From a virus (lineage: Duplodnaviria > Heunggongvirae > Uroviricota > Caudoviricetes): DNA of 40,254 nucleotides. The position numbers and the translations under genes were made by a program. The stretch is from IMG/VR virus record IMGVR_UViG_2541047843_000009. One strand, 5' to 3'. The notes beneath the pieces are model-generated. The model saw only the letters and a program-made list of their open reading frames with translations. It was not told where the DNA came from and ran no database searches. Each line of letters opens with the position of its first letter. Position 1 is the stretch's first letter. Positions 8,946 to 40,254 of this stretch are shown piece after piece.

Positions 8946-9357
8946 GCCATTCAATATCTGGCGCACCGGAAGTATCGACCAGTTCCAGTGCGTCCAGATA
9001 ATCCAGCCACAAATTATATTGCGCCAGTTCCCCACCTTTCAGGCGACCAATCGCCGCTTTACCAGGCCATTGCTTACTGTTTATGTATTCGTTGACCTGA
9101 TTAATCAATTGCTGCTTTTCCAGTTCGGCTGCGGCAATTTGTTCCTCATGAGTTGGCGGTGGAATATCAATCCATGCAGGCATTCCGTCGATGACACCTC
9201 TGTATTTTCCTTCTGGTGCTTCCTTCATAAATTCGGCGGCAACAGTGTCGTCAATTTCGATTCCATCACCGGGCCATTCGCCGGATTCCTGATAAGCGAT
9301 TTTAAGCTCCACAGGGAAAAACGCATTTTTATCGGCACTGAAAATATATTTCTGCAT
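8917..9357 (-). CDS. G: Tail-fibre assembly protein (currently expressed orientation)
   Basis: 146 aa directly after H; C-terminal VDTSGAPDIEWP motif. Confidence 0.8.
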   Translation of the reverse strand: MQKYIFSADKNAFFPVELKIAYQESGEWPGDGIEIDDTVAAEFMKEAPEGKYRGVIDGMPAWIDIPPPTHEEQIAAAELEKQQLINQVNEYINSKQWPGKAAIGRLKGGELAQYNLWLDYLDALELVDTSGAPDIEWPTPPAVQAR

Positions 9358-9359
9358 TT

Positions 9360-10766
9360 CTACCGTCCTATCGAAATATAACTGAATCTGTATTGCTGTG
9401 AGATATCACTGGTTGCCACACGCCACGCTGAATTACTGATATGTTCAAAATTTACAGACAAAACCTGCGGGGCAGGATTCGACGGGTCTGACTGAACGGC
9501 ATCAGACATAACACTGACTGAAACCATCGGCTGATTAGGGAATGGTATAGGGAAGTGTCCACTGATAAAGCGGGTCGTGTTTCCTGAAAAAGTGCCAAAC
9601 TGAACAATATATCCACCTGGTAGCCTGAACCATCCCGAACCAGAAGCGAATGCTCCCATATCCGGTATCTGATTATCTCCTGTGCCCACATCCCTTTTCG
9701 CCGCTTCTCCTAAACCAAGGTATGTGAGAAGACCAGCTACATCCTTTCCACTCAAATTGGTAAGCGTATTGTCCAGCGGTTGTTTACCTGCCAGCGCATT
9801 AAGCATTGTCGTGGCAAAGTTCGGATCATTCCCCAGTGCCGCCGCCAGTTCGTTCAGTGTATCCAGTGCAGCAGGTGCAGAACCCACCATTCCTGCAATC
9901 GCCGATTTCACAAAAGCCGTAGTGGCAATCTGTGTATTGTTGACCGACTGCGCCGCCGTGGGGGCTGTTGGCGTTCCGGTGAGTGCCGGACTCGACAACG
10001 GTGCTTTTAGTGCCAGCGCATTGTTAATGGTGGTACTGAAATTCGGATCATTGTTAATGGCTGCGGCTATTTCTTTCAGCGTGTCCAGCGTGGCTGGCGC
10101 ACCATTAATAAGGGCCGTCAGTGCCGCCTGTACAAACGCAGTGGTCGCAACCTGCGTGGTATTATTCCCCGCCGCTGGCGTTGGCGCTTTGGGGGTTCCG
10201 GTAAATGTCGGGCTGGCTTTTGGCGCGTACTGTGAATGCGGGTCCGGTGCGGCAAGATGTTTTGCCATCTGATCATCCGCGTACACCTTCAGCTCCAGTG
10301 CCTTGTCATCCACATACTTGCGGGTTGCCAGCACTACAGCAGGGTCGATTTTCAGGGTGATATTGTCCGTGCTGCTGGTAATCAGCACCATGCGCACGGT
10401 CTGAGTGCGCCCGCTACCTTCAGCCAGTTGCGGCTTATAGCTTTCCGGGCAGTTGCCCACGGCAATCAATGCCCCGGACTCATCAAACAAGCCCACTTCA
10501 CGTATCCACCAACCGCCCTCGTTTTCAGGGATCACCTGTTCGGCAATAATCTGGCTGCTGTTCTGCGGGTCGATATAAAGCATATTCAGCGCAGCCCGGC
10601 GTTTCTCATTTACCAGTGCCGTCTGCTTTGCGTCCGGCGTTGGCAATACTCCACTGCCATCGCCCACCGCCATATGGGTAATTTTTAGCGGCACACCGAG
10701 CGCGGCGGCGCTGGCAAGTTTCGCCGCGCCAATATCCGTCAGCAGGGTATAAAATTTTGTGCTCAT
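9360..10766 (-). CDS. H: Tail fibre protein H (constant N-terminus, invertible C-terminus)
   Basis: 468 aa; Ala/Thr-rich repeats (TTQVATTAFV..., NDPNF...); the 3' 345 nt lie inside the invertible segment. Confidence 0.85.
   Translation of the reverse strand: MSTKFYTLLTDIGAAKLASAAALGVPLKITHMAVGDGSGVLPTPDAKQTALVNEKRRAALNMLYIDPQNSSQIIAEQVIPENEGGWWIREVGLFDESGALIAVGNCPESYKPQLAEGSGRTQTVRMVLITSSTDNITLKIDPAVVLATRKYVDDKALELKVYADDQMAKHLAAPDPHSQYAPKASPTFTGTPKAPTPAAGNNTTQVATTAFVQAALTALINGAPATLDTLKEIAAAINNDPNFSTTINNALALKAPLSSPALTGTPTAPTAAQSVNNTQIATTAFVKSAIAGMVGSAPAALDTLNELAAALGNDPNFATTMLNALAGKQPLDNTLTNLSGKDVAGLLTYLGLGEAAKRDVGTGDNQIPDMGAFASGSGWFRLPGGYIVQFGTFSGNTTRFISGHFPIPFPNQPMVSVSVMSDAVQSDPSNPAPQVLSVNFEHISNSAWRVATSDISQQYRFSYISIGR
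9704..9719. repeat. Inversion crossover site, right inverted repeat
   Basis: ccttctcctaaaccaa, reverse complement of 7929-7944, located inside the tail-fibre gene H. Confidence 0.7.
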
Positions 10767-22056: not shown

Positions 22057-23466
22057 TTACTCATCTACTCTGATTTTTTGTTTTTTATTATTTTGAGTTA
22101 AGACATTTATGGTAATAGATGTATACGGATGAAAGTCAGGAACTATACTTTTAACCTCTCCATTTTCAAGAAAATGATGTGCTATTGAAGGAAATAAATC
22201 AGGATCTACAGGATATTTAGCATTAGGATTATGATACATATTTAAACCTTCTGCCCATGTTTCTGTAATATCGCCTTCTTTCACTTCAAAACTAAATGCT
22301 GCTGGATATAATGCCTCTGGGTCATGATCATGGCAGTAACCACTCCTAAATAATCTAAGGTCACTTCTTCCAAAACCAGCCAGTTTTCCCATCCGATTAA
22401 ACTTCGATATAGTACCACTATTAGAACTAAGGACGGCCGAAATATTTTCAGACTCATCCAAGAAGAAAAAGCCTGAAGGAATTTCCTTTTTCTCAAATTG
22501 ATGCGATATAATTTTCTTAGTTGCTAAACTGTAACATCCATCTTCAGATTTAACATGCTCATAGCGAATACCATAAAGATACTGCCAAAGTGCACTATGG
22601 GACCAAATCATAGAGTTTGGTTCATGAAAATCAGCAATTGCGAAAATTAAAGGATTCCCCTTAACATGTTCTAGATCCCAGTATCGAGTTTTCTTTTTCA
22701 GTTTAGAATAGAGAGAACTTCCAAATTTAATCGGCATATAATTCTCTATTTTCTCTAGCAATTCTTCCTTACTTTTAGGTTCTGATAGCATTTCAGATGA
22801 TTGATTAATATCATTCCCTGTTGGATTAACCGTTACAGCTTCAATGCAAATAGTATTACCATACTTACGTGCCACATAATCAGGGGCATTAAACTGCCTA
22901 TCTAGCCAAAAGTGTTCCTCTCGTAAATATGCGAAAAGATATAACTCCCATAGCCGGGCATCAAAACCTGTTGTCTGAAACTGCTCTATAAAATTCCCGT
23001 CGACATCCTCAAAATGATTCATCATTTCCTTGATTATCCCTGTTGCAGGCGACCAGTTCGCGTATTTACCAAATAATGAAAAATGATGATGAAGTTTATC
23101 TGGTGTAACTATAGGTGTGAATAAATCCATTGCTTTATAAGTTTCATCACCTTGTGGAAATACTTTTACGTTTAATTTAGTATGCTTCCGCATTAATTTC
23201 TTTAGTTTTGCTCGTGCAGAATTCATTTCTGAAACACTAGTAAATAGGTCAATACATCTATATCTCCCACTTAAGTCTCTTGCTAAAACAATACCGCTAT
23301 AATCTTCATCGATTTGATCCAATAATAGTGCCCCTAGCAGGAACTCTCTCGGACTACAGTACCACTCAAACTCATAGCCTAAAAGTTCAGTATTTGGCAT
23401 TCTGGTCCAATCAACAAAAGCATTAAACCTCTCTTTACTCATTTTTTTTATATCAAGAAAAGACAT
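22057..23466 (-). CDS. Hypothetical 469-aa protein; AT-rich cargo gene, candidate anti-phage defence or abortive-infection protein of unassigned family
   Basis: Long ORF in clearly AT-rich DNA between portal and cos, convergent with Q; GAGGT about 9 nt before the ATG; no Walker A motif; no family recognised. Confidence 0.7.
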   Translation of the reverse strand: MSFLDIKKMSKERFNAFVDWTRMPNTELLGYEFEWYCSPREFLLGALLLDQIDEDYSGIVLARDLSGRYRCIDLFTSVSEMNSARAKLKKLMRKHTKLNVKVFPQGDETYKAMDLFTPIVTPDKLHHHFSLFGKYANWSPATGIIKEMMNHFEDVDGNFIEQFQTTGFDARLWELYLFAYLREEHFWLDRQFNAPDYVARKYGNTICIEAVTVNPTGNDINQSSEMLSEPKSKEELLEKIENYMPIKFGSSLYSKLKKKTRYWDLEHVKGNPLIFAIADFHEPNSMIWSHSALWQYLYGIRYEHVKSEDGCYSLATKKIISHQFEKKEIPSGFFFLDESENISAVLSSNSGTISKFNRMGKLAGFGRSDLRLFRSGYCHDHDPEALYPAAFSFEVKEGDITETWAEGLNMYHNPNAKYPVDPDLFPSIAHHFLENGEVKSIVPDFHPYTSITINVLTQNNKKQKIRVDE

Positions 23467-23564
23467 CTTTCTACCTCATCACGAAAAAATATTTTTTCCT
23501 AAAAAGACTTAAGTTAGCTTAATCTATTGATAAAAAAAAGCTAAGTAACGACCAAATACGCGCG

Positions 23565-23583
23565 CTCGTATCCCCGCCACGCC
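23565..23583 (-). other. Candidate cos cohesive-end site
   Basis: Minus strand reads GGCGTGGCGGGGATACGAG; the first 13 nt match the 186/P2 cohesive-end consensus as I recall it (from memory). Confidence 0.45.
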
Positions 23584-23632
23584 TGCCCGCTTTATGTAGT
23601 GGTTTTCATGCACCTGCATGATCTACGCAAAA

Positions 23633-23652
23633 GCCCGCCAGTTCTGGCGGGC
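23633..23652 (-). terminator. Candidate rho-independent terminator of the A-orf-dinI operon
   Basis: Perfect 9-bp GC-rich stem gcccgccag / ctggcgggc followed on the minus strand by TTTTGCG. Confidence 0.45.
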
Positions 23653-23787
23653 CTTAGCAAAAACGATCCTCAAACGATCATGCGATCTCATGCGGCATAG
23701 ACATGCACTACAGAGCTAACGCCTCGCAAGGGCTCGTTGTTCAACCTTGCTGACGCCAGAAGCAAGTTCAGACGCCAGCAACGTTTC

Positions 23788-24021
23788 TTAATGCAGCCAG
23801 CTGTCGTCTTCCCACACCTTCTGCATAATTTTCATCACTTGTTTTCTTTCTTCGTCCAGTTGCAGTCCGGTTAGTTCCACACCGTTAGAGCTACCTTTGC
23901 GAATGCGAATTACCGTTTTGGGATACAGGGGGCGCAGATTGCGGTAAAGCTCGGATTCAAGGGCGTCCAGGGTAGACTGGCTAATCTTCTGCTCTTTATC
24001 GATCATTATTTCAATGCGCAT
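23788..24021 (-). CDS. DinI-like protein
   Basis: 77 aa from MRIEIMIDK..., ending ...VWEDDSWLH, resembling DinI; GGTGA ribosome-binding site. Confidence 0.7.
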   Translation of the reverse strand: MRIEIMIDKEQKISQSTLDALESELYRNLRPLYPKTVIRIRKGSSNGVELTGLQLDEERKQVMKIMQKVWEDDSWLH

Positions 24022-24031
24022 AAAAGTCACC

Positions 24032-24220
24032 TCAGCTGATGACATCCATTGAGCGGTTGTATTCGTGGGTTCTGATTTTTGCCATGAGTTCATCAGTCAA
24101 TTCAGAAACCCACTGCAGAGCCAGCCCCTTCTCTTCATCACTACACTCACTAGCCGCTACAAGCTTAAGAAAAAAATCAATGCGCTGGAGCTTCAAAGAC
24201 TCCAAAAAATAGTCCTGCAT
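24032..24220 (-). CDS. Hypothetical small protein (62 aa)
   Basis: AGGAGG 4-5 nt before the ATG at 24220; the longer track ORF is probably an artefact. Confidence 0.5.
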   Translation of the reverse strand: MQDYFLESLKLQRIDFFLKLVAASECSDEEKGLALQWVSELTDELMAKIRTHEYNRSMDVIS

Positions 24221-24364
24221 CTTTCCTCCTATGACACCACACGCAATGCTGTATGCATAACCACTGTTTATATTTACAGTATATAATAATCTTACTGATG
24301 TAAAACGATTTTTTACGTTCATCAGCCTGGTATTATTAAGAGCACGAATTGTTAACCCGCGTAA

Positions 24365-26779
24365 TTAATACAGGTTCCGCCACTGATCATCTTCCTGCAA
24401 ACGCTGGTTCCGATAGAAGATACGCAGGCCTGCTCCTGACGGAATACTGCCTCCGCGAAGGAGTAAATCGACCTCTTTCTCGCTGCCATCAAATCCTCTG
24501 GACTTCAGCTCATACACGAGCTGCAGTCGCTGATGGTCTGTAATTCGCTGTTTGTAGTCTTTACGCCGTTTCGGTTTCACCAGGCGTAACCTTGCTGCCA
24601 GTTCCCGGCGCTCTTTTTTGCTCATACTGTGCAGGTAATCGTGCAACTCCTTGTCATCCATGCTGGTAATGTCCGTTCTGGGGTCCCCATCAGCTGATTT
24701 ATCTTTCTCCTGTTGGTTCAAATTTTCAGCAAGGGGACAGTTATTGCCACGAGTCCAAGGGGCGCAAGCGCCCTGGTCGGCTGCCGCCTCCTGAACGTCA
24801 ACGGCCTTACGAACCATTTTCCACTTCACGGCATGAGTGCAGATCTTGCCCTCTGCAATAGGTGACCAGATGCCATAAATACGAATGCCGTGATCGCCAT
24901 AGGCGGTCGGCTCTTCGTTGATTTCATAAGCAGTTCTGATAAGGTGATATTTACGGGGAACCAGTACGCCGCCCTGCTTCATGATGTAGGTGGCAAAACA
25001 ACCAGCATCAGCAGCAGCCAGGATTGCATCAAGGCGCGGGTTATCCAGTACCGGCGCACCTGCTTTTTTGTCACCCTGTTGCCTTGCCGCCTGACCAGCC
25101 AGCAATCGCAGTTCACGGTAAGCCTGACGCCCCGGAATGCCAAAGAAGCGGAATTGCTGAACACGATGCAGAGACGCCCAGGCATTCACGTATTCAGCGT
25201 TATCACGCAGGGATTTACCCGTTTCCTTGCTGATCTCGCCAGCCAGACCACGCCCGTCAATGTTCTTACTGATATATTTCGCGATGTAGCTTGTCGGCGT
25301 TCCTTTGCGCGGGTTAATCAACTCAGACTTAAAGCGCGGCCCCGTGTTATTGCCCAGCTCCTCGCGGTCTTCACGGATGGCAAACTTACGCAGTAATGCA
25401 GTGATGGCGCGGCGGTCTTTTTTGCGCATAAAACACAACAGGTGCCAGTGAACTGTACCGTCATGATGCGGCTCAGCCACCCGCACGCCATACCAGCGCA
25501 ATCCGGCTTTGTGCATCGCCTTACGAAATGCAGCAAACATGCCGACCAAATAATCACTGCTTTGTCTTACCGTCGCATTTGTCCAGTTCGGGTTGGGTCT
25601 GCCGTTATTTAGCGTGGAATGGAAACGTGACGGACAGGTGATGGTGTAGAAAACGGCGCAGTCACCGCGCATTTCCGCGATAAGTTCCAGACCTTTAACA
25701 CAGGCCATCATCTCATTGCGGCGATGCGCAGGGTTGCTGCTGCTGGCGTTTACCACATCCTCCATGTCCAGCGTGTCGCCGTCTTCGTTCACCAGTTCAT
25801 GAGAACGGAAAAACTCCAGCGACTTACGGCGCTGCTCACGTTTATGCATCACGGCTTCATAGCTGACATAAGGAGATGCTTTTTTGCTGACCAGGCAGAC
25901 AGCGCGCAACTGCTCTTCCCGCCATTCGCAACGCATCTTCCATAATTTCCGGTACCACCAGTCAGCGCACAACATACGCGCCAGCGAACCCGGAATGAGT
26001 TCATAGGGCACGGGTTTACGGCGGTTTCTTTTCCGACGGAGTTGCTCAAACGCAGGCGGGATAACATCCAGACGCAGGGTTTCCGCTGCCACCTTTTCCC
26101 ATGTCTTGCGGATTTCTTCTGGCTTAACGTCATCGGTGGCATACAAATCACCACAAGCTGCATCAAGGCACATGCTCATATGCGCAGCGACAAGGGTAGA
26201 CAGGCGCTTCACCTGATCCTGACTCATTTCAGGCAGGATAAGCAGGCCATCCAGCCCTTCATGGCTTGCCATAAAGCGAAAAGAAGCGGATAGCTGACTG
26301 TCGCGTACATGCTCCAGTCGTTCCAGACATGGCTTAATCGTCTCACGCAAATAGCGGGAATAAGCCTTTGGCCTGCCCAGGCTGCTGAAGTATTCAATAC
26401 GTTGCATCAGCGGCTTGCTGATATGGGAAGGCTGGGCATTGACGTCCGCCAGAATGACCATATCTGGATTAAAACGCTGCTGCTCATGCGCCAGCTTTGC
26501 CCGACTAATGAGCTTATCCTGCTCCATTTCGCGCTGGACAGGATCACGGGATTCATTAAAGAAATAACGCTCCCAGACCTGATCACTCAGTGCCTCGCGG
26601 CGCAGCTGTTCCTGCTCGTTATCGGCAGCGTACAGAGTGATCAGGTTTGAAAGCGCAGAAACCGGCGCAACTTCCGCCGGGTCCAGATAAGGGTTAATGG
26701 CCTTTTTCGGGCTGTTCCATGAGAACGATGCGGCAGCCTCGTTAAAGCCGCAGCAGTTGTTCATATCGGCATGGCTCAT
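24365..26779 (-). CDS. A: Replication initiation endonuclease A (rolling-circle, HUH type)
   Basis: 804 aa; [10 protein letters not shown] motif; ATGA overlap with the upstream methylase gene. Confidence 0.9.
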
Positions 26780-27633
26780 GCACGTACTCCGTACACGGCA
26801 GAACTATCCACGCCACGCGAATAATCAAATCCCACCCAGCAGCGCGGCCCGGAAACAGCAATGATTTCTGTTGCTGATTTACCCTCGCCAGCTGCCACAC
26901 CGATGCTGCGTTTTGCCTTGATGTAGTGGTGAGTAAAATTGCGATACAGCGAACGGATCAGGGATGTGTCACTGTTAGAAACAATGACCGGATGTCCTTC
27001 TGATGACCGATGTTCAAGAACAGATGCCAGGTGATACTGGTCATCTTCAGTGAAACCATCAGTGTGATAGCCGGAAAACGTACCGTCATACGGCGGATCG
27101 CAATACACCACATCCCCCGCCTTCAACATCGCCAGCGTTTCATCAAAGCTGGCGCAGATAAACGTTGCTCGCTGGGCCTTTTCTGCAAATGCGCGAATTT
27201 CTTTTTCAGGGAAATACGGATTTTTATAATTACCGTAGGGAATGTTGAAATGCCCGCTCTTGTTATAGCGACATAAACCACGGTAACCGTGACGATTGAG
27301 ATACAGGAAATATACCGCTTTCATGAAATCAGTAATTTCAGTGGAGTAATTAAACTCCTGCCTTATGTTGTAATAAGCCACCTCCCTGTTTGCGATCTCA
27401 AATAAAACTCTGGCGCGAGATATAAACGATTCACAATCAGCAGCAACCTTTTTATAGAGGTTGATTAAATCAGGATTAATATCCGCAACCAGATAGCTGG
27501 GGTAATCCGTCTCCATCATCACAGCACAGGAACCCGCGAAAGGTTCAACCAGTCGCGGGCCAGCAGGAAGGTGTTTTTTCAGTTCGGACATAATGGCGGT
27601 TTTATTTCCCGCCCATTTCAGGATGGTGCTCAT
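26776..27633 (-). CDS. DNA N6-adenine methyltransferase, Dam-like
   Basis: DPPY catalytic motif (VVYCDPPY) and N-terminal AdoMet-binding region (EPFAGSCAV); start taken at [11 protein letters not shown]. Confidence 0.85.
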
Positions 27634-27857
27634 ACAGCACCTCCGTTGTAATGTTTGCCTTTCAGCTCTGCGATTTCCTGACAGGTAATGCAAAGCTGCA
27701 CCCCCGGAATGGCACGGCGGCGTGCTGGCGGAATTGGCGCTTCACACTCAACGCAAAGCACGCGGGACACGCCCGGCGTTTTGGCACGGGCAGCACGGAT
27801 ATGACGTTGGCGTTCTTCTTCAACTCGCTGCTGTACGAGATCCATTGCATCAGCCAT
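27630..27857 (-). CDS. TraR/DksA-family C4 zinc-finger protein
   Basis: CVECEAPIP...CITCQ; 75 aa; translationally coupled to both neighbours. Confidence 0.75.
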   Translation of the reverse strand: MADAMDLVQQRVEEERQRHIRAARAKTPGVSRVLCVECEAPIPPARRRAIPGVQLCITCQEIAELKGKHYNGGAV

Positions 27858-28096
27858 CAGTGGATCTCCTGCGCTTCGTTCTGGATTGCTTCAGCAGTCA
27901 CACGCAGCAGTTCTGCCGCTTCGACGTGGTTTAGTTGGCGGGATGTGATATGACACGCCAGGCTATCAAGGCGAGCTGCCATTGCTTCAGCCCTTGCCCG
28001 GCGTTCTTCCAGACGAGCCTCTGTCAGTAAAATATTAAGCCCTGCATCATCCGGTCCGGTTTTAGTCGTGAGGGTTTCAATATTACGCATAATCAA
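27857..28096 (-). CDS. Hypothetical early-region protein (79 aa)
   Basis: ORF in operon context; stop overlaps the next start (TGATG). Confidence 0.5.
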   Translation of the reverse strand: MIMRNIETLTTKTGPDDAGLNILLTEARLEERRARAEAMAARLDSLACHITSRQLNHVEAAELLRVTAEAIQNEAQEIH

Positions 28097-28157
28097 TTCT
28101 CCTGAATTTAGATAAAGGGATGCCCGGCGGGTTTACGCCATTAATTTCATTAGTTGG

Positions 28158-28499
28158 TTAATTCGGCATGGTTAGCCGTCTGGGAAATAAGCTCACCACT
28201 GCACGAAAATGATTCATTGCTTTAATCAGCTCCCGCTTTTCGTCAGTGGTCAGCTCATTAATGCTGATGCTATGACGTTCAGCTGGAATTTTTGCCATAA
28301 AGAATATGGCAGCCAGTGCCCGTTTATTTTGTTCATTATTGATATCCCGTGGATCACGCATATCTTTAATAAACCGCTCAAGCTCTGACTCAATATTCAT
28401 GCCAAAAACTTTCGCCCTTAACTCCGCAATGTGATTAAGTCCATTCAGGCGTTCACCGGGGCTTAATGGAACAGTTGCTGCAGCGCCATTAATTGCCAT
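28158..28499 (-). CDS. Hypothetical early-region protein (113 aa)
   Basis: ORF in the early rightward-type operon; no family recognised. Confidence 0.5.
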   Translation of the reverse strand: MAINGAAATVPLSPGERLNGLNHIAELRAKVFGMNIESELERFIKDMRDPRDINNEQNKRALAAIFFMAKIPAERHSISINELTTDEKRELIKAMNHFRAVVSLFPRRLTMPN

Positions 28500-28521
28500 A
28501 CTTCATATCCCCCAAACGCAG

Positions 28522-28746
28522 CTATCGTTCTTTGTTCTTACGGTAACGCTCAAGAGGAGATACATTTTTTCGTATCGTCTCTTTAACCTGCTCTCCCCGT
28601 AAAAACGTCCCATCCTTTAACGTGAAAAAGTAACTGCCATCGCCCGACAATGACGGATAGCAACAGAGCAAATCATCTTCAGGTACTGAATAACTCTCCC
28701 CTCTGTAACGAAACTGATAAACCACTTCACTTTCTGCCGCATACAT
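28522..28746 (-). CDS. Hypothetical small acidic protein (74 aa)
   Basis: GGAG about 9 nt before the ATG; protein-like composition. Confidence 0.5.
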   Translation of the reverse strand: MYAAESEVVYQFRYRGESYSVPEDDLLCCYPSLSGDGSYFFTLKDGTFLRGEQVKETIRKNVSPLERYRKNKER

Positions 28747-28913
28747 TTGGACTTTCTCCGTTTCCTCGTGGTCAATTCAGACAGCAATTCATCTTGTGAA
28801 TGACATGGATGCCAGCGTTTTCCATTCTCACCCGTGATCCAGCCGTGACCGTAGTGCATTGCCGGACTTTGTTTTACCAGCAGCGACGCAAATGATGGTT
28901 CTTTCGTCAGCAT
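28617..28913 (-). CDS. Hypothetical ORF overlapping 28522-28746 in another frame; possible frameshifted or overlapping gene
   Basis: Start at MLTKEPSF just after cII; the N-terminal half looks protein-like, the C-terminal half is Lys/Arg-rich and overlaps the neighbouring ORF. Confidence 0.3.
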   Translation of the reverse strand: MLTKEPSFASLLVKQSPAMHYGHGWITGENGKRWHPCHSQDELLSELTTRKRRKSKCMRQKVKWFISFVTEGRVIQYLKMICSVAIRHCRAMAVTFSR

Positions 28914-28920
28914 AAGCACC

Positions 28921-29430
28921 TCACAGCAAACCGAATGAAGCACCGAGACCAGTCACAGTATCAACTGCACTCGCCATCGCAGGGTTAGCCTGTAAACGGG
29001 CCTGCAATGAAACAGCCGCCAGCGCCATCAGTCGTGTTACAGAATTAATGCTGCTGATGGCATCACGACGACCGGCACTGGTTTTTACATCGCCAGATAC
29101 CGCACCTGCAGCAACACGCCCGATCTCTGCGGTTGCACTCATGACGTAATGCGGCAGTTTCTCTTTTGCTACCTCATTAATCGGTACACATGGCAGGCAG
29201 TGAATCTGTGCCAGAAAACCATCTATCAGCGTTGAATCTTCAGTCAGATCGGTAAGCAGCCAGATTTCTGGCGCATTGAGCTGATGCGGTTGATCTGGGT
29301 TGAGTTTGTTTCGCAGAGTCTGGACATTCATTCCTGCACGTTCTGCCAGCTTCGCCATATTGTGACGAAGTGCAAAAGCTCTACAGGCTTCATCAAAATG
29401 CGGGTGTTTGGAAATCTTATAATCAAACAT
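28921..29430 (-). CDS. cII: CII-like establishment-of-lysogeny regulator (186 type)
   Basis: 169 aa, the length of 186 CII; helix-turn-helix-like N-terminus; directly downstream of apl. Confidence 0.7.
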   Translation of the reverse strand: MFDYKISKHPHFDEACRAFALRHNMAKLAERAGMNVQTLRNKLNPDQPHQLNAPEIWLLTDLTEDSTLIDGFLAQIHCLPCVPINEVAKEKLPHYVMSATAEIGRVAAGAVSGDVKTSAGRRDAISSINSVTRLMALAAVSLQARLQANPAMASAVDTVTGLGASFGLL

Positions 29431-29462
29431 GCTACCCCCTTAGAAAGTTCTCATAATTGAAC

Positions 29463-29705
29463 TTACTTACCAACAATGACGCGGAAGTTGGAATGACCGA
29501 GGGATTCACGGACCTGATCGGTTTTGTACATTAAATAACGCAGGCTTACGCGGCCTTTGTTTTTTTCCTTCTTGACCATGTATTTAGCAAGCTGACCATG
29601 GTGAATTTTTTGATACACAGAGCCGCGGGAGATACCTTCCCATTCAGCGAACTCAGCAGGCGTTGCCATCTCTTTTGGTACACGAATTGAAATATCAGTA
29701 CTCAT
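29463..29705 (-). CDS. apl: Apl/Cox-like excisionase and repressor of the lysogenic promoter
   Basis: 80-aa basic protein, first gene of the lytic-direction operon, divergent from cI. Confidence 0.7.
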   Translation of the reverse strand: MSTDISIRVPKEMATPAEFAEWEGISRGSVYQKIHHGQLAKYMVKKEKNKGRVSLRYLMYKTDQVRESLGHSNFRVIVGK

Positions 29706-29821
29706 AGTGCAGTATCTCTTAGTTTGGTTTCGTTTTATCTTGTTTTATGTGGTTTGGTTTTGCTTTTCAAACCATGAATGGATATTAAGATCACTTTTTA
29801 TATACGTCAAGAGGTTTGATT
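29706..29821. promoter_or_regulatory. Lysis-lysogeny switch region between the divergent apl and cI genes
   Basis: Direct repeats gtttggttt at 29722-29730 and 29752-29760 in AT-rich DNA. Confidence 0.5.
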
Positions 29822-30454
29822 ATGAGCTTAATCAAAGCGGGAAATGATAGTGGTGGGCGCGATGCAATTAACAGGCTTATTAAGGCTTACAACTTCAGCT
29901 CACGACAGCAGCTCTGCGAACATCTGGAAGTATCCAAAAGCACTATGGCTAACAGATACTTAAGGGATAGCTTTCCTGCCGAATGGGTAATTCAATGTGC
30001 CCTTGAAACAGGAGCTTCCCTTCTATGGCTGGCTACTGGTCAAGGAGATATGTATGCGTGTGAGAACGAAGAAACAAATCTCAAAAATGAACCTCCCGTC
30101 ACTGTAAGACCACTTTCTAAGATCGTTGCTCCTAGCATCAAACGTGTTGAACTGAAGAACGGCGAACTGCAGGCAAGTGATGAAATTCTTATTGATAGCA
30201 GCCTGCTCGATGGTGACTCATCCAACGCTTTATTTGTTAAAACAGCTAATAATAGCTTTGTAGTGGATACGTCCGTTAAACAAGTCAGTAATGGCTTCTG
30301 GTTAGTCGATATGGACGGAGTTAAAAGCATCGTCAAAATTGCGCGCATACCCGGAAACAAAATAGTAGTTAGCCAAGATGACACTTCATTTGAATGTTCT
30401 GTAGATGATGTGGAAGTCGTAGGACGTGCAGTCAAAGTAATCAAGAACCTCTAA
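29822..30454 (+). CDS. cI: CI immunity repressor (186 type)
   Basis: CALETGASLLWLATGQG motif as I recall in 186 CI; start taken at the ATG after GAGG (the track start is a TTG); 210 aa. Confidence 0.8.
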   Translation: MSLIKAGNDSGGRDAINRLIKAYNFSSRQQLCEHLEVSKSTMANRYLRDSFPAEWVIQCALETGASLLWLATGQGDMYACENEETNLKNEPPVTVRPLSKIVAPSIKRVELKNGELQASDEILIDSSLLDGDSSNALFVKTANNSFVVDTSVKQVSNGFWLVDMDGVKSIVKIARIPGNKIVVSQDDTSFECSVDDVEVVGRAVKVIKNL

Positions 30455-30457
30455 CTT

Positions 30458-31474
30458 ATGACCATCAGAAAACAGCCGAACGGAAAATGGTTGTGTGAGT
30501 GCTATCCCAATGGACGCAATGGTAAGCGCGTGCGTAAGCAATTTGCTACCAAAGGCGAAGCCATTGCATTTGAAAGCTTCACAATGGAAGAAGTGAACAA
30601 AAAACCGTGGTTAGGAGAAAAGGATGATCGGCGACACCTATCAGAATTAATTGAGCTTTGGTATTCCCTGTATGGTCAGACACTCGCAGACCCCAAGCGC
30701 CTCATGGCGAAACTTAGAATTATCTGTAATGGTCTAGGCGACCCCATCGCCTCAGAACTGACAGCCGGTGACTTTACGAAATACCGCGAAGCACGGTTAA
30801 AAGGTGAAGTACGAAATGAAGATGGCACGTTTATGTCGCCCGTTAAGCCCCGCACGGTAAACCTTGAACAGCGCAATCTATCATCTGTTTTTGGTACGCT
30901 GAAAAAGCTGGGCCACTGGTCAGCCCCCAACCCGCTTGCTGGGCTGCCAACATTTAAAATTGCTGAGAGTGAATTGGCGTTCCTGACCCCGGAAGAAATT
31001 AAACGTCTGCTGGATGCCTGCGCCGATTCTCAAAGCTCCAGCCTGCTTTTGATTGCAAAAATATGCCTGGCCACCGGCGCACGCTGGAGCGAAGCCGAAA
31101 ACCTGCAGAGTCATCAGGTATCAAAATACCGTATCACTTATACCAAGACCAAAGGCAAGAAAAACCGAACTGTGCCTATTTCTAAGGATTTATATGAAGA
31201 ACTGCCTAAGAATAGGGGGAAGTTATTCACCCCATGCAGAAAAGCCTTTGAGCGTGCAGTAAAGCGGGCTGGTATCGATCTGCCAGAGGGTCAATGTACT
31301 CACGTTCTGCGTCATACATTCGCTAGCCATTTTATGATGAATGGTGGAAACATATTGGTTTTGCGGGATATCCTAGGACATTCAGATATAAAAATGACCA
31401 TGGTCTATGCACACTTCGCCCCAGACCATTTAGAAGATGCCGTAACTAAAAATCCTTTATTTAATTTGAGGTAA
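30458..31474 (+). CDS. int: Tyrosine integrase (P2/186 type)
   Basis: 338 aa; C-terminal ...HVLRHTFASHF...LGHSDIKMTMVYAH catalytic region with the Tyr. Confidence 0.9.
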   Translation: MTIRKQPNGKWLCECYPNGRNGKRVRKQFATKGEAIAFESFTMEEVNKKPWLGEKDDRRHLSELIELWYSLYGQTLADPKRLMAKLRIICNGLGDPIASELTAGDFTKYREARLKGEVRNEDGTFMSPVKPRTVNLEQRNLSSVFGTLKKLGHWSAPNPLAGLPTFKIAESELAFLTPEEIKRLLDACADSQSSSLLLIAKICLATGARWSEAENLQSHQVSKYRITYTKTKGKKNRTVPISKDLYEELPKNRGKLFTPCRKAFERAVKRAGIDLPEGQCTHVLRHTFASHFMMNGGNILVLRDILGHSDIKMTMVYAHFAPDHLEDAVTKNPLFNLR

Positions 31475-31484
31475 GTAGTAATTT

Positions 31485-32153
31485 ATGAATAGCGAACTAG
31501 AGTTACTTATAAAAATATTATTCCCTTCCCTATCTGCCATTATATCCTTATTAGGGCTTAAAACAGGGTGGACTTATAAAAAAGATAAACTATTCACATC
31601 ACGTAAAAACATTAGCGAATTTTCATATCAGATGTATAAAAGCAGTGAAGATCCGACCTTCAAAAAACTGGCGGAAGATTACGGCATTGCTGCATTAACC
31701 AAAGATAACACATTGACAAAAAAACAAAGATTAATATTACTCAACACAACAAACCCCGTTAGCGATATAGATAATTATTCCAAATGTCAAAGTCTAATTT
31801 CCATTACCACCCATAAAGAAATATTCGCATGGAATAAAAAAAGATATAAATACAGCATATATAGAAAATTAATAAAAATCATAACAACTCTAATTTACTT
31901 CATGAGCAGTCTCATCGTAGCACTTCCTTTCAGTTATTCTGTTGTAGTAAGTGCTAAGATGATGGAGAAGATAAACCATCTAACTACTTGGCAATACTTT
32001 GGTTTAAGCAGCTATTTTGTGGTATCGGGAGTAGCAATATGCTTTATCTGCCTAGATAAGCTCTCCAAGATTAAGATCGCCGAGAGATTAATCGTTTCGA
32101 ATAGGCGTTTAGGCGACAAATGCAGTGGCGGCACTTTGGCGGCAGAAAGTTAA
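31485..32153 (+). CDS. Hypothetical AT-rich membrane protein (222 aa, about 3 transmembrane helices); candidate moron or superinfection-exclusion gene
   Basis: Starts 10 nt after the int stop; hydrophobic helices at the N-terminus and around residues 133-157 and 172-191; very AT-rich. Confidence 0.6.
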   Translation: MNSELELLIKILFPSLSAIISLLGLKTGWTYKKDKLFTSRKNISEFSYQMYKSSEDPTFKKLAEDYGIAALTKDNTLTKKQRLILLNTTNPVSDIDNYSKCQSLISITTHKEIFAWNKKRYKYSIYRKLIKIITTLIYFMSSLIVALPFSYSVVVSAKMMEKINHLTTWQYFGLSSYFVVSGVAICFICLDKLSKIKIAERLIVSNRRLGDKCSGGTLAAES

Positions 32154-32237
32154 AAACCCATAAAACGGACAGACACCGCATAAATCTAACCAACTGAAAA
32201 TCAAAGCAAATCATTGTTTTTACAGACATTGAAATGC

Positions 32238-32282
32238 TATGTAGGAATTTCGGACGCGGGTTCAACTCCCGCCAGCTCCACC
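32238..32282 (+). other. ssrA: 45-nt copy of the tmRNA (ssrA) 3' end; prophage att core at the prophage-host junction
   Basis: atgtaggaatttcggacgcgggttcaactcccgccagctccacca matches the ssrA 3' terminus as I recall it; the sequence upstream does not continue as ssrA, so this is a core duplicate. Confidence 0.7.
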
Positions 32283-32386
32283 AATCATGATTGGACGGTG
32301 TAAGGACAACACCAACAAAAACAGGAAGTTAGCAGTCTCAGCAGGACACCGACCAGACGGTGAGGAGACAAAAAAGGATACGCAAA

Positions 32387-32440
32387 GGAGCCGCGGCTCC
32401 CAAGTGACATGAAAGCCCGCATCTGCGGGCTTTTTCGTTT
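32387..32440 (+). terminator. Structured region: 14-nt palindrome (32387-32400) plus an intrinsic terminator hairpin and T-run (32415-32440)
   Basis: ggagccgcggctcc, then gcccgc-atct-gcgggc followed by tttttcgttt. Confidence 0.5.
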
Positions 32441-32583
32441 CATCTGCAAAAATGTCTATACATCAGCCGCCACAAACGGAGCAACAGCCTTTATTGGTGT
32501 GGGTGTTAAATTGACAAGGTACCTGCGACAGGAGATTTCTTGTTTATTTGTAATGCCACTGTTCTTTATCAGGAAGGTGATTA

Positions 32584-32853
32584 ATGGAAAATCTACTTTT
32601 TGTGATGTGTTGGATTAAAGATCATCATGTGATGTCATTAACTTTTGGCGTCTTATCTGCAATTTTATGGATTAAATCTGCTACAGCAAAAGTTGAGTTA
32701 GGCAAAAAAATTGTCATGGTTACGTATGAAGATCCCGAACTTAACGTGAATCTCCATGATTTCTTCGCCACTGCGCGGCTTCAATCTAAGTACAATTCAT
32801 TTGCAGCATTGTCTGCAGCAGCAACCGCGCTATTCCAGATTATTGGTTTGTAA
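32584..32853 (+). CDS. Hypothetical small hydrophobic protein (89 aa)
   Basis: AGGAAGGTGA ribosome-binding site; two hydrophobic segments; AT-rich. Confidence 0.45.
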   Translation: MENLLFVMCWIKDHHVMSLTFGVLSAILWIKSATAKVELGKKIVMVTYEDPELNVNLHDFFATARLQSKYNSFAALSAAATALFQIIGL

Positions 32854-32991
32854 TGCTTACCAGCCCCAAATTAATCAATACCCAGTGGTATTAGCAATGT
32901 CCGCTTCAAGTACATACATTCTTAAGACATTTGGGCACTGTCATGTCTGTCGGGGGAGTAGGTTAAAATCCTCTCGTGCAAAATTTCTTAG

Positions 32992-33354
32992 CTAGAGAAT
33001 ACAAAGAACATCATCTGGTGTTAACACAGAGTCTTCTACGTACTCAGGGTGGTTACGTAATACATCTCTCTGATGTCTCAAGATCTGCGCTGGAATTTCT
33101 TGCTCATCCACAATTTTGGCAGTATCCAGCAAAATACTGCCACACCTTATTTCCAGCAAAACAAAGCGATTCCACTCTGGACCGTTAGAACACAAAAGGT
33201 CAAACAAAACCTCACCTGTAGCCTGTGAATTGCCCAGTATAACAGAAAGCCTCTTCTCGATTTCGTGAACTGAAGTCAAGGGGTTCTCGTAGCCAGTCGC
33301 CATAACGACGGCAATGAGAGCCCCTGAGACGTTAACACCTGTTATTTCAAACAA
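32992..33354 (-). CDS. rnlB: RnlB-like antitoxin
   Basis: 120 aa; start overlaps the rnlA-like stop by 8 nt; resembles E. coli RnlB (from memory). Confidence 0.65.
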   Translation of the reverse strand: MFEITGVNVSGALIAVVMATGYENPLTSVHEIEKRLSVILGNSQATGEVLFDLLCSNGPEWNRFVLLEIRCGSILLDTAKIVDEQEIPAQILRHQRDVLRNHPEYVEDSVLTPDDVLCIL

Positions 33355-34417
33355 TATACAAATCCTTAATAATTCCCCATGCCTGTCTGGCCTTAGTCAT
33401 CAGTCGTGCCATGTCAGAAACCATACGGCTTGTGTCGACAACTATCTCCATATGGAACAGGCCATGACGTTCTCTGTTAAAGAAAGTATAGGCATCATTA
33501 ATGGTCTTAACCTTAGCTGACGATAAATTGCATCCAAATTGTTGTTTCAGAATAAATTCACTCCCAATTTTATCAAAATAAGGTCCGAAACCATCCTGCG
33601 TGATTGGCATGCCATATCGGTACATTGTTGATTTAAGTACTCCCTCAACTGAACGTAATTCAGGATACAACAACATACAGTAATCGGGTAAATCGGGGGC
33701 GGCGAGTTTAACACACAGCCCAGAAACGAGCAATTTTTCAACATTCTTATGCAATAGTGGGTACGCATCCCCCATTTCACACTCTAGATGTGAGCGAGCA
33801 ACTTCTTTCTGAACTATATACGCTTTGCCATCGTCCTGACGAATGAGAACTTTTTCCAGACCTTGTAAATCGAGTAGCTCTGACAAGTTGAATATAAACA
33901 CTCTATAACATGACAATGGACGCCCTTGTATTTGTAGTGTTCCATTTCTGTGATGCAGACTAACTGTCAACTCATCCTGAAATTCTGGCGAATGAATTTT
34001 CCACACCGTTGTATGAGTGTTCCGTAAGTATTCGTAAAATTGTATATGTGGCTGCTCTGCTGAGAGCTGAAGTACAGATAAAACGTTCGCTTCAACGAAC
34101 CCTTGTAACACCATATTTACCTGTTCAAATTCTGCAGGATTGATGGTTTCATAGAGATTATCAGCCAACTCTTTGCCAAGATTATGATTAGCTCCTGTTT
34201 GATACTGGACTGTAGACGTCCCTCCGTTATTATAGAAAATGTTAACAGTTGCCAAAGCTTCTCCTGGTTTAGCAAACACAACCCGAAGTCCTGCTCTTGT
34301 ACCAGGCATTGGTCCAATTGAATGGACGGAATAGTTTTTATTTTCAATAAATGCCCTAGACGTAGCCTCAATAGTTGTCCGATCCAAATTTAAATTAGTG
34401 TAGTTCCTGACTGTCAT
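33347..34417 (-). CDS. rnlA: RnlA-like endoribonuclease toxin (RNase LS family)
   Basis: 356 aa from MTVRNYTNLNL..., resembling the E. coli RnlA N-terminus and length (from memory); two-gene operon with the antitoxin. Confidence 0.65.
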   Translation of the reverse strand: MTVRNYTNLNLDRTTIEATSRAFIENKNYSVHSIGPMPGTRAGLRVVFAKPGEALATVNIFYNNGGTSTVQYQTGANHNLGKELADNLYETINPAEFEQVNMVLQGFVEANVLSVLQLSAEQPHIQFYEYLRNTHTTVWKIHSPEFQDELTVSLHHRNGTLQIQGRPLSCYRVFIFNLSELLDLQGLEKVLIRQDDGKAYIVQKEVARSHLECEMGDAYPLLHKNVEKLLVSGLCVKLAAPDLPDYCMLLYPELRSVEGVLKSTMYRYGMPITQDGFGPYFDKIGSEFILKQQFGCNLSSAKVKTINDAYTFFNRERHGLFHMEIVVDTSRMVSDMARLMTKARQAWGIIKDLYIV

Positions 34418-34476
34418 TTGCTTAACCCTATAAAAAACTTTAGCAAACTCTACAATATAGCCCCTCTTTAGTCTAA

Positions 34477-34760
34477 TCAGGCGCTGTATCCTGAAATCGG
34501 GTACCGATAATATCCCTCCTGCAGCCATGTGTTGGTGTTAACAAGATACTGTGTATCAATTGAATCCGTCAGACTGCAAAAGTTGATACCTCTTTCGCGC
34601 AGTTCCTCCACCAGCACGACAAGATGCCTCATACTGCGCCTCAGTCGGTCCAGTTTCCAGACCACCAGAGTGTCACCTGCCGATAATGTCCTGAGAAATT
34701 TTTTAGCCCGGGTCTTTCGGGCGTTGTAACGCTGATTTTATCTTCAAAATCAGCGCGCAT
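34477..34760 (-). pseudogene. Truncated, frameshifted Pin-type DNA invertase remnant
   Basis: MVWKLDRLRRSMRHLVVLVEELRERGINFCSLTDSIDT matches the central part of the invertase at 7294-7860; DNA similarity continues upstream out of frame; the C-terminal helix-turn-helix half is missing. Confidence 0.7.
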
Positions 34761-34817
34761 TCTTCTTAGGCCAGCAAGTTCTTATATGTGACGTGACTGT
34801 GGCTACAACAGATACGA

Positions 34818-34880
34818 TTATTCCATAACAGGGCTTGCAGGCCACTCAATATCCGGTGCAGTTGATGTATCAACACGATT
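34818..34880 (-). pseudogene. Tail-fibre assembly gene remnant (C-terminal about 20 codons only)
   Basis: ...[19 protein letters not shown] matches the C-terminal motif of the Tfa proteins at 8343-9357; upstream codons are not protein-like. Confidence 0.55.
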
Positions 34881-34953
34881 CAACAACACCCGATACTTCT
34901 TCCATGCTGAAAGCAATGATGCCGTTCCTAAGTTGCATTTACAGCCACCTTTT

Positions 34954-35250
34954 TCACCCGCGCTCAACCAACAACCAGACCAGCAGACACGCCACCACCG
35001 GCACAGCAAAATCCATCAGGCTTGCCACATCCCACGCGCGCGGATCAAAACCGCCCCACCACGGCATATTCATACGCTTGCCATGCCCGAACATTTCAAT
35101 CCAGCGATATTCTGCCTGGGTGTGCTCACGCGCAATGAAGAACGTACAACCGGCTATCGCACCGTAAGCCCACTTTCCGGTAAAAAGACCAACCAGTACC
35201 TGTGCGACCACAGCACAAAGTGCATGAAGTAAGGGACTTATATCCATCAT
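34954..35250 (-). CDS. Hypothetical small membrane protein (98 aa)
   Basis: Two hydrophobic helices; lies downstream of the lambdoid tail-fibre genes. Confidence 0.5.
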
Positions 35251-35259
35251 TTCCTCCTT

Positions 35260-35538
35260 TCAGCTCCATTCCCGAAGCGGAGTTTCCAGCTCCACGTCAT
35301 AATCCGAGAATACAGAAACATCAAACAAGTCATCAAGAATGCGAATGTTGACAAAATAACCGTCATTCCGGATACAGACAGGTTCTCCCTCTTCTGTTAC
35401 CCCTGTTTCTGTGTAGGTGAAACCAATTTCATCAACTAACAGTTTATTCTGGAGGTCTTCATCTTCCGCCCAGCCAAGAGATGACAGGAAGGCCTTAAAC
35501 TGCAGTTTGTCATGAAACTTCAAAGTTAAATCTTTCAT
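35260..35538 (-). CDS. Hypothetical acidic protein coupled to stf; possible tail-fibre chaperone
   Basis: 92 aa; start overlaps the stf stop (ATGA). Confidence 0.5.
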   Translation of the reverse strand: MKDLTLKFHDKLQFKAFLSSLGWAEDEDLQNKLLVDEIGFTYTETGVTEEGEPVCIRNDGYFVNIRILDDLFDVSVFSDYDVELETPLREWS

Positions 35539-37601
35539 ACGGCCTCTTTTAATTGCCTGTCATTTAATTCTTTATGCCATATGCGGAAATTGCGAATATG
35601 GCCAAACAGATGTCGTTCTCCAGTATTCGTCTGCCCTCCAAATCGGATATTTTTATCAGCGGTCACGCCATTATATTCACAATAAACTTCATTAACCGCT
35701 TTACCATTTGTCACCACATGAAAGTGACCATCAGCTTTTGCAATACATCCAAATGTGGTTTTCTCTGCAAATACATCTGTCGCTGCGCTATTAACATACG
35801 AGCCTGAAGGGTTTGACAGACTCATATATAACTTACCACTACCTCTGTTGATTGCTGCAATTGCTGATTGCCCGGTATTGGCTGCTGCTATATCCCACAC
35901 GCGGGGTGCGGCGTTTGGTGCAATATCCCAGTTTTTATGAATCTCAAGTAAAAAAGTAAATGGTAACTTATAAAGATTATTTCTGGTGGGGATACTAACC
36001 AAATCACTGGCTCTTGTCGTTGCGCTGCCTCCTGAAATAATAAATGATGATACACACGGCCCATTCTCTACTTGTGGGGTGGCAAGATAAATATAGTCAC
36101 CAGATACTGTTGCCCCACCCTGCTTAGGAGAATACTGTATCTGAGAGCCTATTTTTAACTCACCATCAATTGCCTGAATCGTTGCCTCTGCAAAAATCCA
36201 GCCTGTGGTCTTATCCTTCCTGACTCGTGCCGTAATTCTGCCGGAAGCACCACCTGTCATATTAATTTCAAGCGTTTGCGTATCAATGTACGCATCGCCA
36301 AGAAAAGTTGTTGCACTACCATCATACTTATCAAACCGGATACGTAACCTTACCTGTCGTTCTGTTTTAAAACGACATGAGGTTGTCACGTACTTGTTAT
36401 CGCCTGAGACATCAACTGACTTTGTTGCAGCAATTGATGCCATATTAATAGCCGAGGTTTGCCCAATCAGAGAATCGTTGCAGACAAACTTTCCATATGT
36501 AAAACCAAAACAATCCGTCCCGGTTTCGGGCACATCCATGTTTGACGACCTCCCCCAGCTGGCTGGACTTTCCGAATTGAGCATGTAGTTCGTTCTTTGC
36601 CCCTCAATAAGCAGGCCATCACACTCAAATCGCGGCTCATTAATTTCCGCCGTTTTCAGTTCGCCAGATTTGTTGATATATGTTGCCGTTGATGCGCGAC
36701 TGAAATTAACCTGTTTATCATCGGCGACCTGAACCACATCGTCACCAATGGCTATTTTTTTATAGCCCGGAGAAAACCCCGCAATCATATCCAGTGAATC
36801 GTTAAACGGTATCCACACATCAGGCAGCGGCGGCACTATATTCGCATAGGGCTCTGCAGTCACCTCCGCAGCGGCTTCTGCGCGGTCTGCCGCCTTTTCA
36901 GCTCGTGTCGCTGCTAACAGAGCCTCATCCTTTTTCTGCCCGGCCTTTGTTGCGTCTGCTGCGGCCTCCCGCGCTTTTGTGGTGGCAGTTTCAGCTGCAG
37001 TTGTCGCTGATGATGCTTCACGACGTGCTGCGTCAGCATTTTCTGCGGATTTCTCCTCTGACGCCCGGGCATTAGTCTCTGAAAGTGATGCTGATGTTGC
37101 TGCTTTTTCTGATGCTGTTTTAGAAGATGCAGCAGCTTTCGCGCTGTTACCTGCATTCGTCTCTGATGTTTTCGCCGCGTTCCTGGACGATGCCGCTGCA
37201 GTTTCGGATTTCTTTGCCGCCGCTGCGCTCTGAGAGGCGACTTCAGCGTTGCGTGCCGCCTCTTCCACCATCTTTTCAAAACGATACAGTGCCTCCGGAC
37301 GAACATCATCTTCTGTTGCAGCGCCCAGAAAATCATTCAATGTCCCCGGTTTAGAATCCTCATACACGGTAATGGTCCCGGCATGTGAAGGCGGAAAACC
37401 TTCAACCAACAGGGTGACGCTGTACTGGCCATACTCAACATCCATGCTGTAACGCCCGGCTTCATCCGGATTTTCAGAGGCCACCGTGTTCACCAGTACC
37501 GTGGTGCTGTTACGTTTTGCTTTGAGCTGAATGGTGCAGTTCTGTATCGGTTTTCCTGCACCGTCTTTCAGCACGCCTGAAATCTGTACTGCCATATTCA
37601 C
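35535..37601 (-). CDS. stf: Lambdoid side tail fibre protein
   Basis: N-terminus MAVQISGVLKDGAGKPIQNCTIQLKA... matches lambda Stf; Ala/Ser-rich low-complexity shaft; distinct C-terminal domain. Confidence 0.85.
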   Translation of the reverse strand: MNMAVQISGVLKDGAGKPIQNCTIQLKAKRNSTTVLVNTVASENPDEAGRYSMDVEYGQYSVTLLVEGFPPSHAGTITVYEDSKPGTLNDFLGAATEDDVRPEALYRFEKMVEEAARNAEVASQSAAAAKKSETAAASSRNAAKTSETNAGNSAKAAASSKTASEKAATSASLSETNARASEEKSAENADAARREASSATTAAETATTKAREAAADATKAGQKKDEALLAATRAEKAADRAEAAAEVTAEPYANIVPPLPDVWIPFNDSLDMIAGFSPGYKKIAIGDDVVQVADDKQVNFSRASTATYINKSGELKTAEINEPRFECDGLLIEGQRTNYMLNSESPASWGRSSNMDVPETGTDCFGFTYGKFVCNDSLIGQTSAINMASIAATKSVDVSGDNKYVTTSCRFKTERQVRLRIRFDKYDGSATTFLGDAYIDTQTLEINMTGGASGRITARVRKDKTTGWIFAEATIQAIDGELKIGSQIQYSPKQGGATVSGDYIYLATPQVENGPCVSSFIISGGSATTRASDLVSIPTRNNLYKLPFTFLLEIHKNWDIAPNAAPRVWDIAAANTGQSAIAAINRGSGKLYMSLSNPSGSYVNSAATDVFAEKTTFGCIAKADGHFHVVTNGKAVNEVYCEYNGVTADKNIRFGGQTNTGERHLFGHIRNFRIWHKELNDRQLKEAV

Positions 37602-37610
37602 TCCACAAAT

Positions 37611-37635
37611 AAAAAAGGCGCCATTTCTGGCGCCC
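37611..37635 (-). terminator. Hairpin with T-tract between J and stf
   Basis: ggcgcc-atttct-ggcgcc followed on the minus strand by six T. Confidence 0.5.
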
Positions 37636-37653
37636 GTATTTGGGTTATAAAAT

Positions 37654-40254
<2,601 letters not shown>

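Follow-up and report, generated by a model that had tools for sequence, protein, structure and literature searches.

A Probable RnlA-RnlB Toxin-Antitoxin Allele at the ssrA End of an Escherichia coli Lambdoid Prophage

We analyzed a stretch of DNA of 40,254 nucleotides (the window) and propose that two overlapping genes within it very probably make up an intact and functional version of RnlA-RnlB, a type II toxin-antitoxin system of E. coli. A lambdoid prophage at ssrA carries the two genes as a 1.49-kb cassette. The proposal draws on sequence comparisons of the two products, their domains and catalytic residues, the gene order and the setting of the same allele in other genomes. The pair is an already annotated and already discussed allele, real but ordinary.

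The toxin and antitoxin genes

The rnlA-like toxin gene (33347-34417, minus strand) runs from an ATG start to a TGA stop and encodes 356 amino acids. The gene of its cognate RnlB-family antitoxin lies directly downstream in the same operon (32992-33354, minus strand), starts with TTG and encodes 120 amino acids. The two genes overlap by 8 nt (33347-33354) with the toxin gene first, and the Shine-Dalgarno sequence of rnlB (AAGGA) sits within the last rnlA codons. An alternative ATG at 34528 would give RnlA a length of 393 aa, a reading that found no support in K-12 homology or in RefSeq. Because the homology with K-12 RnlA starts exactly at the Met of 34417 and the length annotated in RefSeq elsewhere is 1071 nt, we chose the 356-aa start over the longer reading.

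We compared both products with solved structures. The rnlA-like product matched RnlA end to end (6y2p_A, residues 1-356, E=4.2e-167) and again over its full length (4i8o_A, E about 4e-167), and the rnlB-like product matched RnlB (6y2p_C, E=8.2e-51). This similarity of the pair to solved RnlA and RnlB is far beyond chance; the match of the larger product to LsoA (5hy3_A) was weak (E=1e-13). Identity to the proteins of K-12 MG1655 was 71.4% for RnlA and 69.2% for RnlB. The preliminary description of this DNA had proposed an rnlA/rnlB-like pair similar to that of E. coli, and the proposal was borne out by these matches as well as by the domains, gene order and catalytic residues; the coordinates, lengths and overlap that it gave for the 356-aa and 120-aa open reading frames were right, with the minus strand omitted.

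Four Pfam domains were found in the toxin above their curated cutoffs: RnlA_toxin_N (PF19417, residues 6-87), RnlA_toxin (PF15935, 98-183), RnlA-toxin_DBD (PF19034, 203-324) and HEPN_RnaseLS (PF18869, 234-336). The 120-aa protein carried RnlB_antitoxin (PF15933, E=1.5e-23), likewise above the curated cutoff. The rnlA-like product is predicted to be a three-domain HEPN endoribonuclease, made up of an NTD, an NRD and a DBD/HEPN domain. No model in PADLOC 2.0 or NCBIfam matched RnlA or RnlB, and in view of the strong Pfam and PDB matches we attribute this result to libraries that hold no suitable model.

Taken domain by domain, identity to K-12 RnlA was 69% for the NTD, 77% for the NRD and 69% for the HEPN/DBD domain, and conservation was lowest at residues 271-330 (50-60% identity). 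Residues R255, E258, R318 and H323 of K-12 RnlA were reported from mutagenesis to be needed for RNase activity and toxicity (PMC8266594). All four were kept in the window toxin, as R255, E258, R317 and H322, and the HEPN Rx4-6H motif was present together with the conserved Arg/Glu; the dimer-switch residues V206 and D245 were likewise kept. Relative to K-12, dN/dS was 0.12 for rnlA and 0.22 for rnlB, with a dS between the two alleles of about 1.6 that puts synonymous sites near saturation. The low dN/dS values show that both genes have been held under purifying selection.

The cassette and the prophages at ssrA

The rnlAB pair is a discrete, portable cassette (32994-34479, minus strand) with sharp borders that are common to unrelated loci. 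We placed the borders by homology to independent loci; the cassette starts 62 nt before the rnlA ATG and ends with the stop codon of rnlB. In blastn comparisons, two loci with an 87% allele (L016/L017) matched the window at 34479-32994 only, a locus with a 79% allele (L014) matched it at 34477-32994 only, and the K-12 match spanned 34464-33008, with unrelated flanks in each case. Other rnlAB alleles occupy settings without any invertase: the 87% allele has a T5orf172 gene and a umuC-like gene as neighbors, a P4-integrase/ArdC element carries the 79% allele beside Druantia DruA, and a Proteus allele adjoins a prophage integrase. The 79% locus comes from Logan SRR27257701 (L014, 7262-14564), where rnlAB sits directly upstream of a Druantia-like operon comprising DruA, large ORFs and a DEAD/helicase protein, a defense-island context.

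The upstream end of the cassette is a conserved leader or promoter-proximal block (34418-34479, minus strand) that contains the motif TATTGTAGAGTTT and was recognized by alignment to the K-12 upstream region. A consensus scan for sigma-70 promoters and terminators did no better than shuffled sequence, with 5 promoter sites found against 5.6 expected.

The window holds the last 45 nt of ssrA (tmRNA), the attachment core (32239-32283, plus strand), which match the 3' end of K-12 ssrA at 100%. This core is present in a single copy and forms the right junction of a P2/186-like prophage (1-32238); tRNA/tmRNA and Rfam scans of the window detected neither a complete tmRNA nor a tRNA. A 185-nt stretch that comprises the phage-borne ssrA 3' end and the downstream terminator (32251-32435, plus strand) represents the lambdoid att homology. 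E. coli JJ1886 has a second copy of it, 92% identical, at the far end of the prophage, which lies at a distance of 45.8 kb and directly ahead of the core gene glaH. Since about 4170 E. coli genomes have the ~92% version, the copy beside rnlAB is the one supplied by the phage. In JJ1886 the att repeats bracket the whole prophage, rnlAB included, with a full gene set between the repeats; the window shows just the 8 kb of the prophage nearest to att, up to an assembly gap.

Rightward from the end of ssrA, the order is a 152-nt stretch of ssrA-downstream sequence that includes the terminator, a gene for a hypothetical 89-aa protein, rnlB, rnlA and an invertase (pin) fragment, followed by a 36-codon remnant of tfa, two small ORFs, a side tail fiber gene and gpJ. 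The 89-aa gene (32584-32853, plus strand) is convergent with rnlB and matched phrog_14357 (E=4e-33), with no Pfam hit. It lies between rnlB and ssrA in every examined locus with the window allele (JJ1886 and L006-L013), and 66 complete genomes have the stretch that carries it; it is accessory prophage cargo, outside the toxin-antitoxin pair.

The tail end of the lambdoid prophage (34954-40239, minus strand) is on the same strand as rnlAB and matched phrog_2148/phrog_31, phrog_1419, phrog_1361 and phrog_1443. PHROG assignments identified the C-terminal part of gpJ (37654-40239, minus strand) and the side tail fiber (35535-37601, minus strand), and the whole tail end is co-linear with the prophages of JJ1886 and of two further loci (L007/L008). 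From these matches and the gene order, rnlAB appears to belong to the cargo of the lambdoid prophage at ssrA, in the accessory end next to att (the 'b-region' position). The P2/186-like prophage integrated later, into the same ssrA end and in front of rnlAB.

Two small conserved ORFs of 92 aa (35260-35538, minus strand, phrog_1361) and 98 aa (34954-35250, minus strand, phrog_1443), neither with a Pfam domain, follow the side tail fiber in place of a conventional tfa. They share about 91% DNA identity with genes located just downstream of the tail-fiber genes of many lambda-like phages, and may be fiber chaperones or cargo. The two prophages stand in tandem at ssrA, the P2/186-like prophage first (1-32283) and the lambdoid prophage with rnlAB second (32284-40254). 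In other strains (L006-L013) the lambdoid prophage stands by itself, or another P2-like prophage takes this position. From 23347 to 40254 the window matches the E. coli scaffold KE700850.1 (GCA_000459075.1) at 100% identity. We considered and rejected a split gpJ in the source strain, as the apparent split is a run of Ns in KE700850.1. The right end of the window (40240-40254; L009 4019-4163) coincides with this scaffold gap inside gpJ; the apparent division of gpJ into two genes there is an assembly artifact, not a mutation.

The P2/186-like prophage encodes its own integrase (30458-31474) and CI repressor (29816-30454), and several of its other genes deserve a brief record. A 469-aa product without a Pfam domain (22057-23466, minus strand) matched a PADLOC model for a gene known from anti-phage defense, PD-T7-1 (E=1.3e-196). 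Its gene has replication gene A (24365-26779) on one side and the portal/terminase region on the other, adjoins a DinI-like gene (23788-24093), and occupies the classic P2 old/tin cargo hotspot. An apparently intact tail-fiber inversion module (7294-10766) consists of a fiber gene (9360-10766, minus strand), tfa (8917-9357, minus strand), an inverted alternative tfa (8343-8945, plus strand), an inverted fiber C-end with a Collar domain (7888-8343, plus strand) and a full 190-aa invertase (7294-7866, minus strand). A gix-type crossover pattern had no match anywhere in the window, this intact module included, which marks the pattern as inadequate and the search as uninformative. The gene of a predicted 222-aa protein (31485-32153, plus strand; phrog_21256, E=7e-155), with no convincing Pfam or PADLOC hit, separates the P2-like integrase gene from the att site. 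At locus L011 this place is taken by an unrelated ORF of 408 aa, indicating a variable cargo position.

We surveyed the distribution of the pair in 5426 complete E. coli genomes and found rnlAB in 436, with the window allele (at least 95% DNA identity) in 73, the K-12 allele (about 73%) in 363 and none between. PGAP names the products 'type II toxin-antitoxin system RnlA family toxin / RnlB family antitoxin'. The exact RnlA protein was present in 144 blocks of an assembly collection, and in all eight displayed places (24 contigs read) it lay between a lambdoid tail module and either ssrA/smpB or an inserted P2-like prophage. Among strains, the cassette was retained while the adjacent tail-fiber module was swapped or, in one locus (L010), IS-disrupted. 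More widely, the RnlA family comprised 114 clusters at E<=1e-20, with members in Proteus, Morganella, Providencia, Vibrio, Shewanella and Pseudomonas.

A tblastn search of 50,697 sequenced phage genomes returned no RnlA homologue, which leaves carriage by an active phage undocumented. The 89-aa neighbor likewise gave no tblastn match in the phage collection, whose only DNA matches fell in the small ORFs that follow the tail fiber. Plasmid homologues of RnlA, LsoA included, were all below 60% identity. A scan of genome contigs with RnlA returned two K-12-type loci only and was uninformative on the window allele.

Putative role of the pair and its place beside pin

The mechanism that we propose is drawn from the K-12 system (PMC5308261; PMC8266594). 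RnlA (RNase LS) would act as a HEPN endoribonuclease, and labile RnlB would bind the active HEPN dimer and block its active site. Both proteins would be made from one operon with the toxin first, and translation of rnlB would begin at its TTG, within the overlap with the end of rnlA. If the K-12 case is a guide, a phage such as T4 would shut off host expression, upon which the unstable RnlB would disappear; free RnlA, stimulated by RNase HI, would degrade mRNAs and abort phage growth, and a phage could escape by supplying its own antitoxin, Dmd. In K-12, RNase HI is also required for RnlB to neutralize RnlA, and an anti-T4 (dmd-) role of RnlA has been demonstrated (PMC5308261). Activity against T4 dmd- together with inhibition by Dmd is known for K-12 RnlA and LsoA only. 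For the window allele we infer both the anti-phage role and the phage range from this system.

The window RnlA is probably toxic, on good indirect evidence from E. coli JJ1886. In this strain, CRISPRi knock-down of rnhA was toxic, and rnhA essentiality was lost in one suppressor clone that carried an IS in rnlA plus an mfd mutation (bioRxiv 10.1101/2020.05.25.114553). The weight of the suppressor for the window allele comes from the close agreement of the proteins, which differ from those of JJ1886 by three residues in RnlA and one in RnlB. The rnhA/rnlA result in JJ1886 also fits the dependence of K-12 RnlB on RNase HI.

We entertain, tentatively, the possibility that the allele is insulated, meaning that it would not be neutralized by K-12 RnlB and/or would resist T4 Dmd, and that late read-through upon induction could boost its expression. 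The most divergent stretch of RnlA (271-330) falls in the HEPN/Dmd-binding domain, the alleles in E. coli genomes form two discrete groups, and rnlAB is on the same strand as the late tail operon of the prophage without an evident terminator between them. Insulation, if real, would make the pair an arms-race variant whose phage range differs.

The pair might serve mainly as an addiction or stabilization module, maintaining the prophage end or the ssrA island by post-segregational killing rather than defending against phage. Such a role would suit its position at the extreme att-proximal prophage end, in a recombination hotspot with stacked elements such as the P2-like prophage beside it, and would also suit the persistence of the cassette next to a tail-fiber module that changes between strains. 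However, the K-12 homologue acts against T4 (dmd-) (PMC5308261), and related alleles occur in defense-type settings, at prophage ends and next to dedicated defense systems, as in the case of Druantia DruA; we consider a mainly stabilizing role rather unlikely. Addiction and defense are not mutually exclusive.

Upstream of rnlA lies a dead fragment of a pin-type DNA invertase, a serine recombinase (34552-34748, minus strand), that we identified by Pfam and by tblastn with the intact 190-aa invertase of the P2/186-like prophage as the query. Residues 48-98 aligned at 86% and residues 33-50 in another frame; the fragment corresponds to residues ~33-98 of 190, with a frameshift near 34700 that puts its first 18 codons in a different frame. 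The Pfam Resolvase domain was matched at positions 68-106 of 145 only. The fragment has no start, no N-terminal catalytic serine region and no C-terminal DNA-binding (helix-turn-helix) half, and is not a complete invertase of the Pin/Gin/Hin type. These features mark it as a pseudogene fragment, and the JJ1886 copy is annotated in RefSeq as 'frameshifted; missing N-terminus and C-terminus'. DNA identity to the invertase of the P2-like prophage was only 75%, so that the fragment is not a recent copy of that gene. Farther upstream, a 5'-truncated tfa (tail-fiber-assembly) remnant (34821-34928, minus strand) keeps the last 36 codons only and aligned by tblastn with residues 159-194 of the 194-aa JJ1886 Tfa at 92% identity.

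The preliminary description had pictured a 3'-truncated pin and a pair inserted into, or recombined against, the inversion module. A truncated invertase is indeed present, but as a frameshifted internal fragment with both ends missing; a discrete, sharp-bordered cassette does stand next to a broken pin, but without a 3' half of pin beyond rnlB. That the cassette was inserted straight into an intact pin gene and split it is quite improbable. In its favor, the cassette has sharp, portable borders, and the pin homology ends only 72 nt from the upstream border of the cassette. Nevertheless, the 3' half of pin was absent both downstream of rnlB and anywhere in 31400-35600, and a repeat search around the cassette returned chance-level short matches only, with no target-site duplication, no inverted ends and no flanking repeats. 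The pin gene is also 5'-truncated and frameshifted, which would call for several separate decay or deletion events. A relative with the same flanks and no rnlAB was not found, nor was the ancestral layout of an intact pin without rnlAB in the phage collection. The missing 3' half speaks for a replacement or a deletion, and against simple insertion, as the event that put the cassette beside pin; as long as no relative with an intact pin is found, we prefer this reading.

That the two genes are an inactive relic, prophage junk in decay that merely keeps its reading frames, is hardly credible: pseudogene fragments (pin, tfa) are the immediate neighbors and no sigma-70 promoter was recognizable in the consensus scan, but both ORFs are full length with all catalytic residues intact, dN/dS is low over saturated synonymous divergence, the identical protein recurs in the assembly collection, and the IS in the near-identical rnlA of the JJ1886 suppressor of rnhA essentiality implies an active toxin.

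As a functional allele of RnlA-RnlB, the pair would be a tidy example of a portable two-gene defense cassette with fixed borders, which settles at accessory ends in mobile elements of various kinds. The ssrA hotspot would accumulate defense cargo, first a lambdoid prophage with rnlAB and then a P2-like prophage with PD-T7-1. Strains that carry the allele are expected to need RNase HI (rnhA). They may also restrict T-even-like phages that are dmd-defective or Dmd-less, which bears on the choice of hosts and therapeutic phages. Beyond correct annotation, the locus itself has little significance.

Comparison with known systems

The closest known counterpart is the rnlAB allele of JJ1886 (ST131), and essentially the same allele occurs in about 70 other complete E. 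coli genomes. JJ1886 and the window share 99% DNA identity over 32239-34919, with co-linearity ending at 34919. They also share the flanks of the pair (ssrA, the 89-aa ORF and the pin fragment) and the lambdoid prophage at ssrA. The two differ upstream of the pin fragment, where the tail-fiber module has been exchanged and the 36 codons of tfa in the window stand against an intact gene in JJ1886, and by the P2/186-like prophage that is integrated in ssrA ahead of rnlAB in the window. The JJ1886 genes were noted by the authors of that study as 72% identical to K-12 (bioRxiv 10.1101/2020.05.25.114553).

The K-12 RnlA-RnlB pair (RNase LS, CP4-57) shares with the window the three-domain HEPN toxin, the antitoxin fold family and the catalytic residues, as well as the toxin-first order, the 8-nt overlap, the TTG start of rnlB and a mobile element at ssrA. 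The K-12 features given in the preliminary description (an RnlA of 357 aa, an RnlB of 123 aa and a location in CP4-57 next to ssrA) were confirmed. The window RnlA is one residue shorter, and the window RnlB has 120 residues against 123 and a different C-terminus. The two alleles share only 71%/69% protein and 73% DNA identity, and none of the complete E. coli genomes has an intermediate form. Their carriers also differ, the accessory end of a lambdoid prophage in the window and the P4-like CP4-57 in K-12.

LsoA-LsoB of plasmid pOSAK1 (E. coli O157:H7) is an anti-T4 toxin-antitoxin pair inhibited by Dmd, and its toxin belongs to the same RnlA/LsoA HEPN family as the window RnlA. LsoA is distant from the window RnlA, with about 18% identity by tblastn in addition to the weak match in the PDB search, and LsoA-LsoB is carried on a small plasmid, unlike the prophage-borne pair of the window.
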